Virus record (IMG/VR): IMGVR_UViG_2526164604_000025
From: a virus
Lineage: Duplodnaviria > Heunggongvirae > Uroviricota > Caudoviricetes
Reading direction: 5' to 3' (one strand)
Length of the DNA: 13,895 bases
The first letter of the stretch is position 1. Each line of letters starts with the position of its first letter. The notes under the pieces are model-generated. The model made no database searches. It had not been told where the DNA came from and saw only the letters and a program-made list of their open reading frames with translations. The translations under genes were made by a program, and so were the position numbers. Below are positions 899 to 10,245 of the stretch, in pieces.

Positions 899-3544
899 AT
901 GGCAGGTAATTTTGCCGATCTGACAGCCGTGCTGACACTGGATTCTGCCCGTTTTTCTGAAGAGGCAGCGCGGGTAAAAAAAGAGCTGGGTGAAACCAGT
1001 GCGCTTGCTGATTTGATGTCCGGGAAAGTCAGTCAGTCTTTCAGAAAACAGGCTGATGCTGCTGAGCAGAGTCTGAGCCGACAGGCGCTGGCGGCACAAA
1101 AAGCCGGGATATCAGTCGGACAGTATAAGGCTGCCATGCGCACACTGCCCGCACAGTTCACGGATATTGTCACTCAGCTTGCCGGTGGTCAGAATCCCTT
1201 CCTTATCATGCTGCAGCAGGGGGGGCAGATCAGCGATTCATTCGGTGGACCGCTCAGCCTGCTTACCCTGCTGAAGGAGGAACTTCTCGGGATCAGGGAT
1301 GCCTCTGAATCATCAGAGGAGTCGCTGTCAGATACGGCAAATGCACTGGCTGAAAATGCCCGGAATGCCGGTGAGCTGGGACGATTTATGTCGGTGGCCC
1401 GTGTGGCGGCAGGTGGCGGGGTTGCCGTACTGGCCGCGCTTGCTGCCGCCGCCTGGCAGGCAGAGCAGGCTGACCGGGCCTTATTGCGTTCACTGATCCT
1501 GACCGGAGGGGCGGCTGCCACCACAACGGCAGAATTGTGGAAAATGGCCGGGGTGATCAGCGATGAAGCCGGTGGTGGTATCAGACAGGCGGCAGAAAAT
1601 CTGGCCCGTCTGGCAGAAAGCGGGAAATATACCGCCGGGCAGCTACGGATCATGGGGGAAACCTCTCAGAGATGGCTGCAGACGGTGGGGGACGATGCCG
1701 GGAAGGTGGAAAAAGCCTTTGAAGGGATTGCAGCAGATCCGGTGAAGGCGCTGGCCTCCCTGAATCAGCAGTATAACTTCCTGAGCGTTTCCCAGTTACG
1801 CCATATTGATGAGCTTGAGCGCACGAAAGGTAAACAGGACTGCGGTGACGGAGGCGATGTCCCTGTTTGCGGATGTCATGAATGCACGTCTGGAGCAACT
1901 TGATAAAGCGGCCACGCCGGTGGAAAAAATCTGGGACGATGTTAAAACCTGGACTTCTGACGCATGGGCATGGATAGGTGATCATACACTGGGGGCACTC
2001 AGTCTGATCACTGACGTGGTGGCCGGAACCGTTGAACAGGTGAAGCTGCTGCTTGTGCAGGGGGATCTGGCGCTGGCTGAATTTATTCAGTCAGCCTGGG
2101 AAACGACAAAGAATGTGCCCGGCGTTGGTGCGTTGTTTGGTGAACTGGCAGAAGAGAACCGCGTATTTATTGAGAAAACAAAACGTGATGAACTGGCGCT
2201 GAGAAAATCCATTGCGGAACGGGATGCGCGTATACGCCAGGGGGAAATGGGGTACATCAACCGTTCGCGTGCAACAGGCGTCAGCAAAGGTCCGGGGCAG
2301 CAGGAAGCCGTCAGCCGTCTGGCTGAAGAGCTGACAGGTAAAAAGCATACATCACCGAAAACGCGCTCTGCCGGGGAGAGGGAAGAGGAGCAGGCAAGAG
2401 AGGCTCTGCTTGCCCTTGAAGCTGAGCTCAGGACGCTGGAAAAACACAGCGGTGCGAATGAGAAAATCAGCCGGCAGCGCCGTGATTTATGGAAGGCGGA
2501 AAGTCAGTATGCGGTCCTGAAAGAGGCTGCCACGAAACGGCAGTTATCTGAGCAGGAAAAATCCCTGCTGGCGCATAAAGACGAGACGCTGGAGTACAAA
2601 CGCCAGCTGGCTGAGCTGGGAGACAAAGTTGAACACCAGAAACGGCTGAATGAGCTGGCACAGCAGGCTGCGCGGTTTGAGCAGCAGCAGGGCGCGAAGC
2701 AGGCGGCAATCAGTGCCCAGGCGCGGGCCTCACCGACCGTCAGGCGCAGCGGGAGTCGGAAGAGCAGCGCCTTCGTGACGTGTACGGTGATAATCCGGAT
2801 GCGCTGGCGAAGGCCACATCTGCACTGAAGAACACCTGGTCTGCGGAGGAGCAGCTTCGTGGAAGCTGGATGGCCGGGCTGAAGTCCGGCTGGGGCGAGT
2901 GGGCGGAAAGTGCGACGGACAGTTTTTCGCAGGTTAAAAGTGCTGCCACGCAGACCTTTGACGGTATTGCACAGAATATGGCGGCGATGCTGACCGGTGC
3001 AGAGGCAGACTGGCGGGGATTCACCCGTTCGGTGCTGTCCATGCTGACAGAGATTTTTCTGAAGCAGGCGATGGTGGGGATAGTCGGGAGTATCGGCAGC
3101 GCCATTGGCGGTGCTTTCGGTGGTGGTGCGTCTGCCTCCACGGGGACGGCCATTCAGGCTGCGGCGGCGAACTTCCATTTCGCGACCGGGGGATTTACGG
3201 GGACGGGGGGTAAATATGAACCTGCGGGAATTGTTCATCGCGGGGAGTTTGTCTTCACGAAGGAAGCAACCAGCCGGATTGGCGTCGGCAACCTGTACCG
3301 CCTGATGCGGGGCTATGCGGAAGGTGGTTATGTGGGTGGTGCCGGAAGTCCGGCGCAGATGCGGCGGACGGAAGGCATTAATTTTAATCAGAACAATCAC
3401 GTGGTGATTCAGAACGACGGCTCCAACGGACAGGCGGGGCCGCAGCTGATGAAGGCGGTGTATGACATGGCCCGCAAGGGGGCGCAGGATGAGATTCAGG
3501 CGCAGATGCGTGATGGCGGCGTCTTTTCCGGAGGCAGGCGATGA
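899..3544 (+). pseudogene. tail tape measure protein (lambda gpH-like), reading frame broken twice in this sequence
   Basis: Three consecutive ORFs (890..1903, 1806..2828, 2780..3544) each match successive parts of lambda gpH: the N-terminal SLSRQALAAQKAGISVGQYKAAMR, the middle ALLALEAELRTLEKHSGANEKISRQRRDLWKAESQ, and the C-terminal MAGLKSGW...FHFATGGFTGTGGKYEPAGIVHRGEFVFTKEATSRIGVGNLYRLMRGYA. Frame changes lie near 1841 (+1) and near 2725-2727 (-1, in a G run). Likely true start is ATG 899 after AGGAGG at 885-890. Confidence 0.85.
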
Positions 3545-3870
3545 AAACATTTCGCTGGAAAGTGAAGCCGGATATGGAGGTGAACTCGCAGCCATCGGTG
3601 CGTGAAGTGCGTTTTGGTGACGGGTATTCGCAGCGTATGGCGGCGGGGCTGAATGCTGACCTGAAAACATACCGTGTGACGCTTTCCGTGACCCGGGAGG
3701 AGGCCCGACATCTGGAGGCATTCCTGGCAGAGCACGGTGGCTGGAAGGCGTTTCTGTGGACACCGCCTTATGCCTGGCGGCAGATAAAGGTGACCTGTGC
3801 CGCCTGGTCATCACGGGTTCGCATGCTGCGGGTTGAATTCAGTGCCGAGTTTAAGCAGGTGGTGAACTGA
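3541..3870 (+). CDS. minor tail protein M
   Basis: 109-aa ORF MKTFRWKVKP...RMLRVEFSAEFKQVVN, near-collinear with lambda gpM. Its start overlaps the H stop (ATGA) and its stop overlaps the L start (TGATG). Confidence 0.9.
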   Translation: MKTFRWKVKPDMEVNSQPSVREVRFGDGYSQRMAAGLNADLKTYRVTLSVTREEARHLEAFLAEHGGWKAFLWTPPYAWRQIKVTCAAWSSRVRMLRVEFSAEFKQVVN

Positions 3871-4568
3871 TGCAGGATATTCACGAAGAAAGTCTGAACG
3901 AGTCGGTTAAATCAGAGCAGTCACCGCGGGTGGTGCTCAGGGAAATTGACCTGACGGTGCAGGGCGGTGAGCGGTATTTTTTCTGTAATGAGCTGAATGA
4001 AAAAGGGGAGGCGGTCACCTGGCAGGGGCGGCAATATCAGGTATACCCGATTGACGGCAGCGGTTTTGAGATGAACGGGAAGGGCAGCAGTGCCAGACCG
4101 TCGCTGACGGTGTCCAATCTGTTTGGTCTGGTCACCGGGATGGCGGAGGACCTGCAGAGCCTGGTGGGGGCCACGGTGGTCCGCCGCCGGGTGTATGCCC
4201 GTTTTCTGGATGCGGTGAATTTTGTGGCGGGCAATCCGGAAGCGGACCCGGAGCAGGAGCTGAGCGACCGCTGGGTGGTGGAGCAGATGTCAGAGCTGAC
4301 GGCCATGACAGCCTCGTTTGTGCTGGCCACACCGACGGAGACGGACGGAGCGCTGTTTCCCGGTCGCATTATGCTGGCGAATACCTGTATGTGGACCTAC
4401 CGCTCTGATGAGTGTGGTTACACGGGCGGGGCTGTGGCGGATGAGTTCGATAAACCCACCACCGATATCCGTAAGGACAGATGCAGCAAGTGCATGCGCG
4501 GGTGTGAGATGCGCGGCATGGTGGCTAATTTTGGCGGTTTCCTTTCCATTAATAAACTTTCGCAGTAA
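3870..4568 (+). CDS. minor tail protein L
   Basis: 232-aa ORF matching lambda gpL in length and sequence, including the C-terminal Cys-rich region (CSKCMRGCEMRG). Confidence 0.9.
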   Translation: MQDIHEESLNESVKSEQSPRVVLREIDLTVQGGERYFFCNELNEKGEAVTWQGRQYQVYPIDGSGFEMNGKGSSARPSLTVSNLFGLVTGMAEDLQSLVGATVVRRRVYARFLDAVNFVAGNPEADPEQELSDRWVVEQMSELTAMTASFVLATPTETDGALFPGRIMLANTCMWTYRSDECGYTGGAVADEFDKPTTDIRKDRCSKCMRGCEMRGMVANFGGFLSINKLSQ

Positions 4569-4578
4569 ATCCCGGTTT

Positions 4579-5901
4579 ATGACACAGACTGAATCAGCGA
4601 TTCTGGCGCATGCCCGGCGGTGTGCGCCTGCGGAGTCGTGCGGCTTCGTGGTGAGAACGCCGGAGGGGGAGCGGTATATCCCTTGTGTGAATATCTCTGC
4701 AGAGCCGGAGGCGTATTTTCGTATTGCACCGGAAGACTGGCTGCGGGCAGAGATGCAGGGGGAGATTGTGGCACTGGTCCACAGTCATCCCGGTGGTCTG
4801 CCCTGGCTGAGCGAGGCCGACCGGCGGCTGCAGATAAAAAGTGCACTGTCCTGGTGGCTGGTCTGCCGGGGGGAAATTCATAAATTCCGCTGTGTGCCAC
4901 ATCTGACAGGACGGCTCTTTGAGCACGGGGTGACGGACTGTTACACGCTGTTCCGGGATGCATACCATCTGGCGGGAATTGATATGCCGGATTTTGAGCG
5001 TGAGGATGACTGGTGGCGCAATGGTCAGAACCTGTACCTGGACAATATGGAGGCGACTGGTTTTTACAGGATTTCCCTGCCTTCCGCACAGCCTGGCGAT
5101 ATCCTGCTGTGCTGCTTTGGCGCATCGGTGGCCAATCATGCCGCCATATACTGCGGCAACGGTGAACTGCTTCACCATCTGCCTGAACAACTGAGTAAAC
5201 GGGAGAGGTATTCCGAAAAATGGCAACGACGAACGCATTCAGCCTGGCGTCACCGCCACTGGCACGTATCTGCCTTCACGGGGATTTACAACGACTTTGG
5301 CCGCCGCCTCAGCCTGTATGTGAACACGGCAGCGGAAGCCATCCGTGCCCTGTCGATGCAGATGCCGGGATTCCGCCGTCAGATGAACGAAGGCTGGTAC
5401 CAGATACGTATTGCCGGTGATGACACGGCACCGGAGGCGGTGTACGCCCGTCTTCACGAACAGCTGGGTGAGGGAACGGTCATCCACATTGTGCCGCGAC
5501 TGGCCGGGGCCGGAAAGGGTGGACTGCAGATTGTGCTGGGGGCGGCGGCCATCGTGGGGTCGTTCTTCACTGCCGGGGCATCAATGGCGTTATGGGGTTC
5601 AGCCCTGGCAGCCGGTGGTTTTTCTGCCACCACGATGCTGTTTTCACTTGGAGCCAGCATGATTCTGGGCGGTGTGGCCCAGATGCTGGCCCCGAAGGCA
5701 AAAACACCGGATTACCGCGCAACGGATAACGGCAGACAGAACACGTACTTTTCCTCGCTGGATAACATGATTGCCCAGGGGAACCCGATGCCGGTGCCTT
5801 ACGGTGAAATGCTGGTTGGCTCCCGGCGAATCTCCCAGGACATCAGTACCCGTGATGAAGGCGGTGACGGGAAGGTGGTGGTTATCGGGCGGCAGGCATA
5901 A
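4579..5901 (+). CDS. tail assembly protein K (NlpC/P60 plus JAMM/MPN domains), fused in frame to the I-like region as the sequence stands
   Basis: From ATG 4579: MTQTESAILAHARRCAPAESCGFVV..., with the JAMM motif HSHPGGLPWLSEADRR and an NlpC/P60 Cys/His (GVTDCYTLF, NHAAIY) as in lambda gpK. In lambda, K stops shortly after the I start; here the K frame runs on through the I homologue to 5901. Confidence 0.8.
   Translation: MTQTESAILAHARRCAPAESCGFVVRTPEGERYIPCVNISAEPEAYFRIAPEDWLRAEMQGEIVALVHSHPGGLPWLSEADRRLQIKSALSWWLVCRGEIHKFRCVPHLTGRLFEHGVTDCYTLFRDAYHLAGIDMPDFEREDDWWRNGQNLYLDNMEATGFYRISLPSAQPGDILLCCFGASVANHAAIYCGNGELLHHLPEQLSKRERYSEKWQRRTHSAWRHRHWHVSAFTGIYNDFGRRLSLYVNTAAEAIRALSMQMPGFRRQMNEGWYQIRIAGDDTAPEAVYARLHEQLGEGTVIHIVPRLAGAGKGGLQIVLGAAAIVGSFFTAGASMALWGSALAAGGFSATTMLFSLGASMILGGVAQMLAPKAKTPDYRATDNGRQNTYFSSLDNMIAQGNPMPVPYGEMLVGSRRISQDISTRDEGGDGKVVVIGRQA
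5220..5901 (+). pseudogene. tail assembly protein I (lambda gpI-like), frameshifted near 5295
   Basis: The I-like N-terminus MATTNAFSLASPPLARICLHGDLQR is in frame 0 (5220..5294). The rest of the I homologue (FGRRLSLYVNTAAEAIRAL...GEMLVGSRRISQDISTRDEGGDGKVVVIGRQA) is in the K frame from 5296. One extra nucleotide around 5295 explains the shift. Confidence 0.75.
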
Positions 5902-6062
5902 AAGCGAAAAAATCCCGCAGTGCTCACGGACAGGAACTGCGGGAGCGTTACGAAGATTGAGTGTAAGGAATTATTCTTATGTCACGACAAAAACATTAAC
6001 TCAGAGAGGGAGGATGTGCCGTTCTTTTCAGGGAGAAAGGATTTATCGTCCTGAGGAATAAA

Positions 6063-6084
6063 GGTAAGGGGCCCGCCCCTTACC
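6063..6084. terminator. GC-rich hairpin between convergent I and sodC (possible bidirectional terminator)
   Basis: GGTAAGGGG-CCCG-CCCCTTACC: 9-bp perfect stem with a 4-nt loop, 8 bp beyond the sodC stop and about 160 bp beyond the I stop. Confidence 0.5.
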
Positions 6085-6091
6085 TGACTGA

Positions 6092-6619
6092 TTATTGAAT
6101 GATGCCGCAGGCCATTCTCGCACCACCACCGCCCAGGGGCTCCGGATGGTCATGATGGTTATCACCGCCAGCATGAAGCATGAGAGAACGCCCTTTAATC
6201 TCTTTTAATGAGTTCAGTCTCGGGGCCAGGACCGGGTAGTTCGCTTTTCCGTCATGCGTCACGAACAGCGCAGGGAGGTCGCCCAGGTGTCCATCCGGAG
6301 ACCAGGGGCCAAGATGTTTGCCGGTGTTTTTCGGGTCAAAGTGACCGCCAGCCGATAATGCTGCGACCGGTTTTCCGTCTTTCAGTGCCGGGGCGCAATT
6401 TCCTTTTTCGTGCACATGAAAACCATGAATGCCTTCAGACAGAGAGTGAAGGGCTGGTGTGAACAGCAGACCGTAGGGGGTCTCCTGAATGGTTATTTTT
6501 CCAATGCTGACTTCTTTTCCGTCAGCACTGACAAGGTTCATTGGGACTTCCTGTTCTGCTGCGTATCCGCATGATGCTGCTGTCAGCATGGCAATGGCAG
6601 CAATGATTTTACATTTCAT
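6092..6619 (-). CDS. sodC: periplasmic Cu,Zn superoxide dismutase (prophage-encoded SodC)
   Basis: Minus-strand ORF from ATG at 6619-6617: [20 protein letters not shown] (signal peptide) ... [12 protein letters not shown]...[12 protein letters not shown]...GDLPALFV...[13 protein letters not shown]. These are the metal-ligand and active-site motifs of Cu,Zn SOD. The longer track ORF (to 7126) is an antisense extension over the J start. Confidence 0.9.
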
Positions 6620-6752
6620 AAAACCCTCATTAATTCCGTTAACAGACTGAGCTTGCTGGTTACAGGGTAACAAACAGCGTTCTGATGATATCGCGCAATA
6701 GCTGTGCAATATCCTATCACTGCGATTAATAATACCAATTGAGAGGAACATT
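6620..6752. promoter_or_regulatory. divergent intergenic region between sodC (-) and J (+); presumed sodC promoter and J ribosome-binding site
   Basis: 133-bp non-coding gap. GAGAGG precedes the J ATG at 6753; a GAGGG-like site precedes the sodC ATG on the minus strand. No specific -10/-35 elements assigned. Confidence 0.3.
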
Positions 6753-9700
6753 ATGGGTAAAGGTGGCGGCAGGGCGCACACGCCGGTTGAGGCAAAGGAC
6801 AATCTTAAGTCCACGCAGATGATGAGCGTGATTGATGCCATTGGTGAAGGGCCGATTGAAGGTCCGGTGAAGGGGCTGCAGAGTATCCTGGTGAACAAAA
6901 CCCCGCTGACGGACACGGACGGTAATCCTGTGATACATGGTGTGACAGCGGTCTGGCGCGCCGGGGAGCAGGAGCAGACACCACCTGAAGGCTTTGAGTC
7001 CTCCGGAGCTGAAACCGCACTGGGCGTGGAAGTGACGAAGGCAAAGCCGGTGACGCGCACCATTACGTCCGCGAACATTGACCGCCTGCGGGTCACCTTC
7101 GGGGTGCAGTCACTGTTGGAGACCACCTCAAAGGGCGACCGTAATCACTCTTCTGTCCGACTGCTGATTCAGTTGCAGCGTAACGGTAACTGGGTGACGG
7201 AAAAGGATGTCACCATTAACGGCAAGACCACCTCGCAGTTCCTGGCGTCGGTGATTCTGGATAATCTGCCGCCCCGGCCCTTTAACATCCGGATGGTCAG
7301 GGAGACGGCGGACAGCACCACGGACCAGCTGCAGAACAGAACGCTGTGGTCGTCATACACCGAAATCATCGATGTGAAACAGTGCTACCCGAACACGGCC
7401 ATTGTGGGGCTGCAGGTGGATGCGGAGCAGTTTGGCGGTCAGCAGATGACGGTGAACTACCATATCCGCGGTCGCATCATCCAGGTGCCGTCAAACTATG
7501 ACCCGGAAAAACGCACGTACAGCGGCATCTGGGACGGCAGCCTGAAACCGGCATACAGCAACAACCCGGCCTGGTGCCTGTGGGACATGCTGACTCACCC
7601 GCGCTACGGCATGGGAAAACGCCTGGGGGCGGCGGATGTGGACAAGTGGGCGCTGTATGCCATTGCGCAGTACTGCGACCAGATGGTCCCTGATGGTTTC
7701 GGGGGCACAGAGCCGCGGATGACCTTTAATGCGTACCTGTCACAACAGCGTAAGGCGTGGGACGTTCTCAGTGATTTCTGCTCGGCGATGCGCTGTATGC
7801 CGGTATGGAACGGCCAGACGCTGACGTTCGTTCAGGACAGTCCGTCGGATGTGGTGTGGCCGTACACCAACAGAGATGTGGTGGTGGATGATAACGGCGT
7901 GGGGTTTCGCTACAGCTTCAGCGCCCTGAAGGACCGCCACACGGCGGTGGAGGTGAATTACACCGACCCGCAGAACGGCTGGCAGACCTCCACGGAACTG
8001 GTGGAAGACCCGGAAGCCATACTGCGCTACGGACGCAACCTGCTGAAGATGGATGCGTTCGGCTGCACCAGTCGCGGTCAGGCCCACCGTGCCGGGCTGT
8101 GGGTGATAAAGACCGGACTGCTGGAAACGCAGACGGTGGATTTCACGCTCGGGTCACAGGGGCTGCGTCACACACCCGGTGACATTATTGAAATCTGTGA
8201 TAACGACTATGCCGGGACCATGACCGGCGGACGTATCCTGTCCATCGATGCCGCCAGCCGCACCCTGACGCTGGACCGTGAGGTGACACTGCCGGAGACC
8301 GGTGCCGCCACGGTGAACCTGATTAACGGCAGCGGTAAGCCGGTGAGTGTGGACATCACCGCACACCCCGCGCCGGACCGGATACAGGTCAGCACCCTGC
8401 CTGATGGCGTGGAGACATACGGTGTATGGGGACTATCCCTGCCGTCACTGCGCCGTCGCCTGTTCCGCTGTGTCTCCGTCCGGGAAAACACGGACGGCAC
8501 CTTTGCCATCACGGCGGTGCAGCACGTACCGGAAAAAGAAGCCATCGTGGATAACGGTGCCCGCTTTGAGCCGCAGTCAGGCACCCTGAACAGCGTCATC
8601 CCTCCGGCAGTGCAGCACCTGACGGTGGAGGTGAGCGCAGCTGACGGCCAGTATCTGGCGCAGGTGAAATGGGACACGCCGCGGGTGGTGAAGGGCGTGC
8701 GCTTCAGTCTGCGCCTGACCAGCGGAAGCGGAGAAGGCAGCCGTCTGGTGACCACCGCCATCACTGCGGATACAGAGCATCGTTCCAGTGGTCTGCCGCC
8801 GGGGGAATACACCCTGACGGTCAGGGCGATTAACAGTTATGGCCAGCAGGGGGAACCGGCCACCACCACGTTCAGGATTAATGCACCTGCGGTACCCGCC
8901 ACGATTGAGCTGACACCGGGCTATTTTCAGATAACAGCGGTCCCGCGTCTTGCGGTGTATGACCCGACGGTACAGTTTGAGTTCTGGTTTTCGGAGACAA
9001 AAATCGCAGATACATCTCAGGTGGAAACCTCTGCCCGTTATCTGGGGACCGGCAGTCAGTGGAGTGTATCCGGCCCGCACATTAAGCCCGGGAAGGATTT
9101 CTGGTTTTACGTGCGCAGCGTCAACCTGGTGGGGAAATCTGCTTTTGTGGAAGCCAGTGGCCGGGCCAGCAATGATGCAGAAGGGTATCTGGGGCTGTTT
9201 CGGGAAAAAATAGGAAAACTGCATCTGGCTCAGGGGCTGTGGGAGCTGATAGACAACAGCCAGCTTGCGGATGAGATGGCGGAGATGAAGACCTCCATCA
9301 CCGAAACCCGCAATGAAATCACACAGACGGTCAGTAAAACGCTGGAGGACCAGAGCGCCATCATACAGCAGATACAGCGCGTGCAGAAGGACACAAATGA
9401 TGACCTTGCTGCACTTTACATGCTGAAGGTACAGAAAACAAAAAATGGCATACCCTATGTTGCCGGTATTGGAGCGGGGATTGAGGATACTGATGGCCAG
9501 CCCCTGAGCAACATACTGCTGCTGGCTGACCGTATTGCGATGATTAACCCGGAGGACGGCAACACCACGCCGTTATTTGTGGCGCAGGGGAATCAGTTGT
9601 TCATGAACGATGTGTTCCTGAAACGACTGTTTGCGGTGAGTATCACGTCATCCGCCAATCCCCCGACGTTTTCCCTGACGCCGGAGGGCAGGCTGACCGC

Positions 9701-10226
9701 AAGAAATGCTGATATCAGCGGTAACGTGAATGCGAATTCCGGGACGCTCAACAACGTCACGATTAACGAGAACTGTCGGGTTCTGGGAAAACTGTCCGCG
9801 AACCAGATTGAAGGCGATCTCGTTAAAACAGTGGGCAAAGCTTTCCCCCGGGATTCCCGTGCACCGGAGCGGTGGCCATCAGGGACCATTACCGTCAGGG
9901 TTTATGACGATCAGCCGTTTGACCGGCAGATTGTTATTCCGGCGGTGGCATTCAGTGGCGCTAAGCATGAGAGAGAGCATACTGATATTTACTCCTCATG
10001 CCGTCTGATAGTGCGGAAAAACGGTGCTGAAATTTATAACCGTACCGCGCTGGATAATACGCTGATTTACAGTGGCGTTATTGATATGCCTGCCGGTCAC
10101 GGTCACATGACGCTGGAGTTTTCGGTGTCAGCATGGCTGGTGAATAACTGGTATCCCACAGCAAGTATCAGCGATTTGCTGGTTGTGGTGATGAAGAAAG
10201 CCACCGCAGGCATCAGTATCAGCTGA
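6753..10226 (+). CDS. host specificity protein J (central tail fibre / tip attachment protein)
   Basis: 1157-aa ORF collinear with lambda gpJ: [22 protein letters not shown]..., [57 protein letters not shown], ending ...[10 protein letters not shown]. Confidence 0.95.
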
Positions 10227-10245
10227 ATTTTATAACCCATATACG

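Follow-up and report, generated by a model that had tools for sequence, protein, structure and literature searches.

The closest described relatives of the gene analysed here are sodC-F1 and sodC-F2, the prophage genes named by D'Orazio et al. 2008 (PMC2569942), which differ from each other solely by T or C at nucleotide 335, giving Leu or Pro at residue 112. Their product, SodC-F, has a mature length of 155 residues, with an SPase I site at 20/21 and a lipobox, AASC, with Cys17 (PMC2569942). Purified SodC-F1 is an active dimer of 19,380 U/mg, versus 6,290 for chromosomal SodC, which resists proteinase K and EDTA and melts at 78-87 °C (PMC2569942). In uninduced lysogens the epitope-tagged protein is expressed in the log and stationary phases and under anaerobic conditions, and expression is RpoS-independent, as studied with a 299-bp promoter-lacZ fusion (PMC2569942). 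SodC-F is split between the periplasm and the membrane, being partly lipidated, and it contributes to H2O2 resistance, the sodC-F deletion mutants being H2O2-sensitive (PMC2569942).

The chromosomal SodC of E. coli is about 61% identical, and it is monomeric, RpoS-dependent, less stable and fully soluble (PMC2569942); its structure (PDB 1ESO) has the same fold and the same ligands as the enzyme described below. SodCI of the Salmonella prophage Gifsy-2 is dimeric, protease-resistant, virulence-associated and high in lysogens (PMC2569942), and in Salmonella transcriptomics sodCI is strongly expressed, with the Gifsy-2 lytic genes silent (PMC7067206). A second group of relevant genes is that of EcOnc22, EcOnc23 and EcOnc24, which code for Hfq-binding sRNAs of the Sakai prophages Sp15, Sp14 and Sp11, respectively (Tree et al. 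2014, PMC4104026, Table S2). These RNAs are about 85 nt long on Northern blots and are destabilised without hfq (Tree et al. 2014, PMC4104026), and their function is unknown (PMC7873438).

The window, by which is meant the whole stretch of 13,895 nucleotides that was analysed, combines features of both groups at the junction of the tail genes I and J. With a probability of about 95%, its segment 6008-6752 is the moron that EHEC-type lambdoid prophages carry as sodC-F, a self-contained antisense cassette at the I-J junction that codes for a periplasmic superoxide dismutase (SOD) expressed in the lysogen and that would be read through by late transcription.

The sodC gene and its product

The sodC gene (sodC-F, Leu112 allele) occupies 6092-6619 on the minus strand, from an ATG start to a TAA stop (175 codons), with the Shine-Dalgarno sequence GAGGG at 6624-6628 of the same strand, and codes for a 175-residue precursor of a periplasmic Cu,Zn SOD. 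The product scores 111.9 bits (cut-off 28.9; E 3.9e-32) against the Pfam family PF00080 (Sod_Cu), the match spanning profile positions 3-133 of 133, and it matches the solved bacterial SodC structures 1z9n, 2wwn, 1eqw (Salmonella SodCI) and 1eso (E. coli SodC, E 1.4e-56) with E values from 1e-56 to about 1e-62. When aligned with SodCIII of Fels-1, SodCI of Gifsy-2 and human SOD1 (in a sequence that we take to be that of the human enzyme), the copper ligands His68, His70, His93 and His149 (His46, His48, His63 and His120 of human SOD1) and the zinc ligands His93, His102, His111 and Asp114 (His63, His71, His80 and Asp83) are invariant, as are the catalytic Arg168 (human Arg143) and Cys171. Cys75, the partner of Cys171 in the intrasubunit disulfide bridge, is conserved in the three bacterial enzymes that were aligned.

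The export signal covers residues 1-20 (6560-6619, minus strand), with cleavage before AEQ, as read by eye from the sequence, which has a lysine-rich n-region, a hydrophobic core, a GYA|A site and an embedded AASC lipobox with Cys17. It is the same signal as the one for which SPase I processing and partial SPase II processing have been determined experimentally (PMC2569942). The initial annotation had described a signal-bearing Cu,Zn SOD gene lying opposite to a collinear late operon, and the ORF, the Sod_Cu match, the ligands and the signal are all present at 6092-6619; the loss of metal ligands, named there as something that would count against the gene, is not seen in the alignment. A comparison of composition with the flanking genes, also proposed there, gives a GC content of 52.8% and a GC3 of 50.6% for sodC versus a GC content of 57.6-60.4% and a GC3 of 67-70% for L, I and J. 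Two other reading frames are of no further concern: the 344-residue ORF at 6092-7126 is only the sodC frame left open antisense to J, and the 96-residue ORF at 5771-6061 on the plus strand, without a Pfam match, is taken as spurious.

From its sequence, the gene is the one named sodC-F1/sodC-F2. It has T at nucleotide 335 (window position 6285) and hence Leu112, as in the F1 allele, and the mature length of 155 residues, the 20/21 site and the AASC motif also agree. The paper of 2008 (PMC2569942) prints no sequence, so the identity with the purified SodC-F1 rests on these allele-defining features, by which the SOD activity of the window allele would be that published for Leu112 SodC-F1. The protein is identical to ECs_1989 of Sakai prophage Sp10, and it differs from ECs_1120 of Sakai Sp4 and from one EDL933 copy by L112P only; when the whole cassette (6008-6752) is compared with the EDL933 copy, a single base, nucleotide 335, is different. 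The Sakai and EDL933 copies have the same I-sodC-J order, hairpin and upstream region as the window; in Sakai the corresponding region is at 1963484-1964334 (Sp10) and at 1202487-1203337 (Sp4) of NC_002695.2.

The backbone of the window is Sp4/CP-933M-like, being 98.2% identical to Sakai Sp4 over 2403-13137, and the tccP2 and espV remnants at its right end match this type of backbone. Leu112 is found in Sakai Sp10 and in the Sp4-like window, and Pro112 in Sakai Sp4 and in the EDL933 prophage adjacent to uspF (comparison copies at 10678-11205 of L014, 5675-6202 of L009 and 9085-9612 of L006). Sakai Sp4 itself thus differs from the Sp4-like window in its allele, with no functional difference; the alleles are untied to the prophage backbone, and this distribution suggests that cassette copies have been exchanged. 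As a separate observation at the right end, a 156-residue EspF-repeat ORF at 12646-13116 on the minus strand (Pfam EspF, 2e-101) is a tccP2 type III effector gene or pseudogene, in which the number of 141-bp proline-rich repeat units is unlike that of Sakai Sp4 and of FDAARGOS_293.

The sodC cassette between I and J

The gene I (5221-5901, plus strand; Pfam Lambda_tail_I, 4.2e-13), whose 3' part is in frame to the TAA at 5899-5901, precedes the cassette, and J, the tail tip/host specificity gene with seven GpJ Pfam domains (6753-10226, plus strand), follows it. When a 1.3-kb I-sodC-J query is used, 151 phage records are matched, of which two, both Stx2a phages, contain sodC; the other 149 match in two pieces. 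In the comparison with one sodC-less Stx2c phage, the homology stops at 6007 and resumes exactly at the ATG of J at 6753, and 131 bp of unrelated sequence replace the 745 bp of 6008-6752. The 745-bp module is present in 547 of 5,426 complete E. coli genomes (about 10%), across O157, O145, O103, O111 and O55, at up to five places per genome, and 542 of 549 records have it at an identity of at least 99%; sequence of the sodC-less type is found in 1,661 genomes. No direct or inverted repeats flanking 6008/6752 are found, and an insertion of the transposon or integron type is on this ground set aside in favour of recombinational mosaicism. A sodC-bearing Stx2a phage has exactly the sequence of the window throughout the I-J intergenic region (5902-6752), and it differs from the window by about 6% in I, in L and in the 5' part of J. 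Of the initial annotation of 6063-6752 as the inserted segment, the features stand and the extent does not, the mosaic unit being larger.

Two hairpins lie 3' of sodC. The proximal one (6062-6085, minus strand) begins 6 nt past the stop codon and is GC-rich, with a stem of 10-11 bp, a loop of 4 or 2 nt and a folding energy of -19 kcal/mol (z -2.9; none of 200 shuffles folds equally well). The terminator scan picks it out for the minus strand alone, and its U-tract is poor (UUUAUUCCU). In cM8a, which has a divergent sodC allele (80% identical), the stem of this hairpin is kept and the loop is altered. The distal one (5907-5944, minus strand) is a canonical intrinsic terminator according to both the scan and the fold, which abuts the stop codon of I and is kept in all six aligned loci; its stem, 5914-5921/5936-5943 (CCCGCAGU/ACUGCGGG), is followed by AUUUUUU on the minus strand.

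On the 5' side, the divergent gap between sodC and J (6620-6752) has 133 bp and a GC content of 39.8%, and it contains the ribosome-binding site (RBS) and the 5' UTR of sodC and the RBS of J (GAGAGG, 6741-6746, plus strand). Of this gap, the 75 nt next to sodC have hardly changed in the divergent cM8a allele. Both the GC-rich hairpin at the 3' end and the divergent 133-bp region at the 5' end had been recognized in the initial annotation and are recovered here, the latter to the base. A consensus sigma-70-like site is found in 5700-7000 on neither strand at a threshold of 9/12, with 1.1 expected by chance, and a relaxed scan gives 8/12 candidates only, the best of which is TTGGTA-16-TAGGAT with an upstream TG. 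The sodCI gene of Gifsy-2 is reported to be PhoPQ-regulated, and a search for PhoP boxes (at most three mismatches) upstream of sodC gives none in the window, Fels-1 or Gifsy-2. As neither a sigma-70 site nor a PhoP box is recognized upstream, the sodC promoter is taken from the published 299-bp fusion ('data not shown' in that paper), a fragment inside which the 133-bp gap falls (PMC2569942).

The sodC gene between I and J is a moron, in the Juhala/Hendrix sense, and was already known as such. Three of the four moron features are read from the DNA itself, namely extra DNA between neighbours that are adjacent in relatives, an own terminator and an atypical composition; for the fourth, an own promoter, the sequence has no consensus sigma-70 site, and the evidence is that of the 299-bp fusion and the tagged protein (PMC2569942). 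The arrangement is comparable to that in Salmonella. In Fels-1, sodCIII (STM0924; 60.5% protein identity, with all ligands conserved) is also reversed and between the I and J homologues, but the flanking non-coding DNA is unlike that of the window, and an EcOnc22-type sRNA body is not present 3' of the gene. In Gifsy-2, sodCI (STM1044; 58.8% identical to the SodC of the window) is also reversed inside the tail module, with its insertion point between L and a lom-like gene that lies downstream of M, in contrast to I-J in the window. The reading of the locus in the initial annotation, as a reversed sodC moron like those of Salmonella and EHEC prophages, is in agreement with these parallels, with the absence of the gene from most related phages and with its atypical GC3.

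EcOnc22/23/24-type sequence 3' of sodC

The 106 bp at 5902-6007 are common to the window and the sodC-less phages. Within them, 5907-6002 on the minus strand is, in a six-way alignment, a promoter-less sRNA body of the EcOnc22/23/24 family: it differs from the sRNA body of the sodC-less Stx2c phage by a single T, and it has homology to the I-J sRNAs of Sakai Sp15, Sp14 and Sp11. The body, the invariant UAAUCUUC motif, the terminator, the I-J position and the strand antisense to the tail genes are all shared with EcOnc22/23/24, but the -35 and -10 hexamers are not. In the other five aligned sequences these are TTCACA and AATAAT or TATAAT; both are replaced in the window. The promoter is kept in the sodC-less phage record L002 (10/12), in cM8a and in Sakai Sp11, Sp14 and Sp15. 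In the sodC-less phage, the TTCACA-AATAAT promoter (spacer 16-17, 10/12) is 7 nt upstream of the shared segment and on the same strand, and in cM8a, with its about 80% identical sodC allele, the sRNA promoter is intact, with a perfect TATAAT, beside sodC. The I-J sRNA loci of the sodC-less phages (L002 3207-3338, minus strand; L010 2299-2427, plus strand) are antisense to the tail genes, and the RNA predicted from them has about 90-100 nt and folds better than shuffled sequences (z -3.3).

The assignment to EcOnc22/23/24 was made via the Hfq-CRAC peaks, which in Sp15, Sp14 and Sp11 map to the I-J gap and to the strand opposite to that of the tail genes. The coordinates of Tree et al. are those of an older Sakai record, with an offset of about +128 bp relative to the current RefSeq, as calibrated on HnrS (EcOnc11), for which a 66-nt gene is predicted at 1946945-1947010 of NC_002695.2 and the published peak is at 1946819-1946867. 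With the +128 offset, the EcOnc22 peak lands within the predicted I-J sRNA. An Hfq peak is not listed at the sodC-linked copies in Sp4 and Sp10 (Tree et al. 2014, PMC4104026), but these two copies are identical to each other, and multi-mapped reads may therefore have dropped out of the peak list. Rfam has no match in the window at the gathering threshold, and none up to an E value of 1 in the empty-site locus. In the literature examined, no description of a promoter-less sRNA remnant 3' of sodC is found.

Other known sRNAs were considered for the I-J sRNA and rejected by position: HnrS (EcOnc10-12) sits between the Rz endopeptidase gene and the terminase genes, and AgvB, AsxR and PasA-D map downstream of pR' or in the Q-lysis region. 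For HnrS (EcOnc11) of Sakai Sp10 (L008 3446-3511, minus strand), the predicted CUUCUACCCA is perfectly complementary to the hha RBS region, UGGGUAGAAG. The hha mRNA was dropped as a candidate target of the I-J sRNA, which has only (A)AUCUUC in common with HnrS, of which only CUUC can pair with hha; whole-molecule RNAduplex energies of the I-J sRNA and HnrS with hha are uninformative.

The segment 5907-6002 is probably the distal part of the sodC 3' UTR, and the terminator at 5907-5944 is that of the sRNA and is likely to serve also as a distal terminator for sodC read-through. Judged from the sequence, the sRNA of the common EHEC cassette would either be silent or be transcribed solely as the 3' end of the sodC mRNA. 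It is tentatively proposed that the sodC-F cassette landed on a resident EcOnc22-family gene, so that the promoter was removed and the body and the terminator were kept; the sRNA may then have been silenced, or it may be 3'-UTR-derived and co-regulated with sodC via read-through of the weak proximal hairpin, and the rarer cM8a-type allele with its intact promoter would be an intermediate.

Transcription of the cassette and alternative explanations

In the preferred reading, that of a sodC-F moron, the cassette would consist of a promoter region, sodC and a hairpin, set between I and J on the strand opposite to the late operon. Transcription of sodC in the lysogen would start at a promoter within or close to the 133-bp gap (the 299-bp fusion of others), and the 175-residue precursor would be exported and cut after Ala20 or lipidated at Cys17, generating a very stable dimeric Cu,Zn SOD that would clear periplasmic superoxide, as a case of lysogenic conversion. 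Transcripts would end at the weak proximal hairpin or possibly continue for about 115 nt to the terminator at the stop codon of I, and a read-through transcript would then traverse the promoter-less EcOnc22-family sRNA body. In an induced, intact relative, Q-antiterminated transcription from pR' would, by comparison with lambda, cross the cassette to J, lom and stf.

The window itself is probably part of a tail-defective prophage. Its tape-measure gene is fragmented, the three ORFs (890-1903, 1806-2828 and 2780-3544) lying in different frames, and in a 98.8%-identical O157 prophage this gene is annotated as 'frameshifted'; the T gene is partial. When compared with L001 and L003, there is an extra C at 5295, by which I is frameshifted after about 25 codons and a K-I fusion ORF of 441 codons (4579-5901) is formed. 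This C insertion is present in none of the 1,776 matching E. coli records, and it is either private to the source or a sequencing error. With the tape-measure gene fragmented and K/I frameshifted, the phage-side behaviour of this copy cannot be generalised. As a further observation on this tail module, cM8a has genes for a ClpP-like protease, an Arc-family repressor, a YlcI/YnfO-family protein and a P22AR antirepressor-domain protein between L and K (L007 398-2423), and L-K in cM8a is another accessory slot of the same module.

Downstream of sodC come the plus-strand genes J, lom and stf, and I ends upstream of it at 5901; the initial annotation held that the reversed sodC breaks the continuity of the late operon. 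A version of this idea, in which sodC and its hairpin cut J, lom and stf off from the late promoter and a dedicated promoter in 6620-6752 is needed, agrees with the AT-rich character of the gap (39.8% GC), with weak 8/12 hexamer pairs on its plus strand and with the lysogenic expression of lom-type genes in lambda. It is nevertheless quite improbable, as the scan gives no 9/12 site on either strand (1.1 expected by chance), as neither hairpin is followed by a T-run on the plus strand, and as J in the sodC-less relatives is immediately preceded, within the late operon, by a stronger hairpin that on the plus strand looks like a canonical terminator (ACAGGCATCC-tccg-GGATGCCTGT, then TGTTTTTGTG; L002 3376-3409, with equivalents at about 2243-2266 of L010), which is missing from the sodC cassette. 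From the same considerations (a hairpin without a plus-strand U-tract, no promoter in 5700-7000 and a stronger terminator in the sodC-less relatives) the break in continuity is not upheld. The terminator before J in these relatives implies that a terminator-resistant polymerase normally crosses the I-J junction. In lambda, terminator-resistant late transcription is that of the Q-modified RNA polymerase from pR', and we infer that the polymerase crossing I-J would be of this kind, with Q and pR' both outside the window. In this copy the question of continuity is moot, given the frameshifted tail module.

The direction of the event at I-J, gain versus loss, is one that we infer. It is unlikely that sodC is ancestral at I-J and that the sodC-less phages are deletion derivatives, even if two alleles alone give no direction, the presence of sodC at I-J also in Fels-1 makes the arrangement old, and the sodC-less allele is no clean empty site but has 131 bp of unrelated DNA instead of the cassette. 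The composition of sodC departs from that of the tail genes, the sodC-less alleles are commoner and more diverse (1,661 versus 547 genomes), the cassette is almost clonal from one serotype to the next in spite of diverging flanks, which points to a recent spread, and in the cM8a allele sodC has been added beside an intact sRNA gene. The surrounding decay (the split tape-measure gene, the K/I frameshift and the truncated tccP2-like gene) could also be taken to mean that sodC is no longer active, a remnant or pseudogene that a decaying prophage simply carries along. This is hardly credible, since the ORF is full-length with complete catalytic residues, the protein is identical to one shown to be active and expressed, and sodC is 100% conserved while its structural neighbours gather lesions.

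The paper of 2008 already covers the sodC-F gene, its prophage site, the biochemistry of its product and its expression in the lysogen, and the gene is routinely annotated, so that its identification as such adds nothing new. The value of the locus is that it illustrates cleanly a moron whose boundaries can be given to the base, and the fresh detail is the sRNA gene body taken into the 3' side of the sodC cassette. Seen in this way, Stx-type lambdoid phages have a composite accessory slot at the junction of I and J, occupied either by an Hfq-binding sRNA gene on its own or by sodC together with a promoter-less copy of that gene, and the two states amount to a natural experiment in which the displacement or capture of phage regulatory RNAs by cargo genes can be followed.
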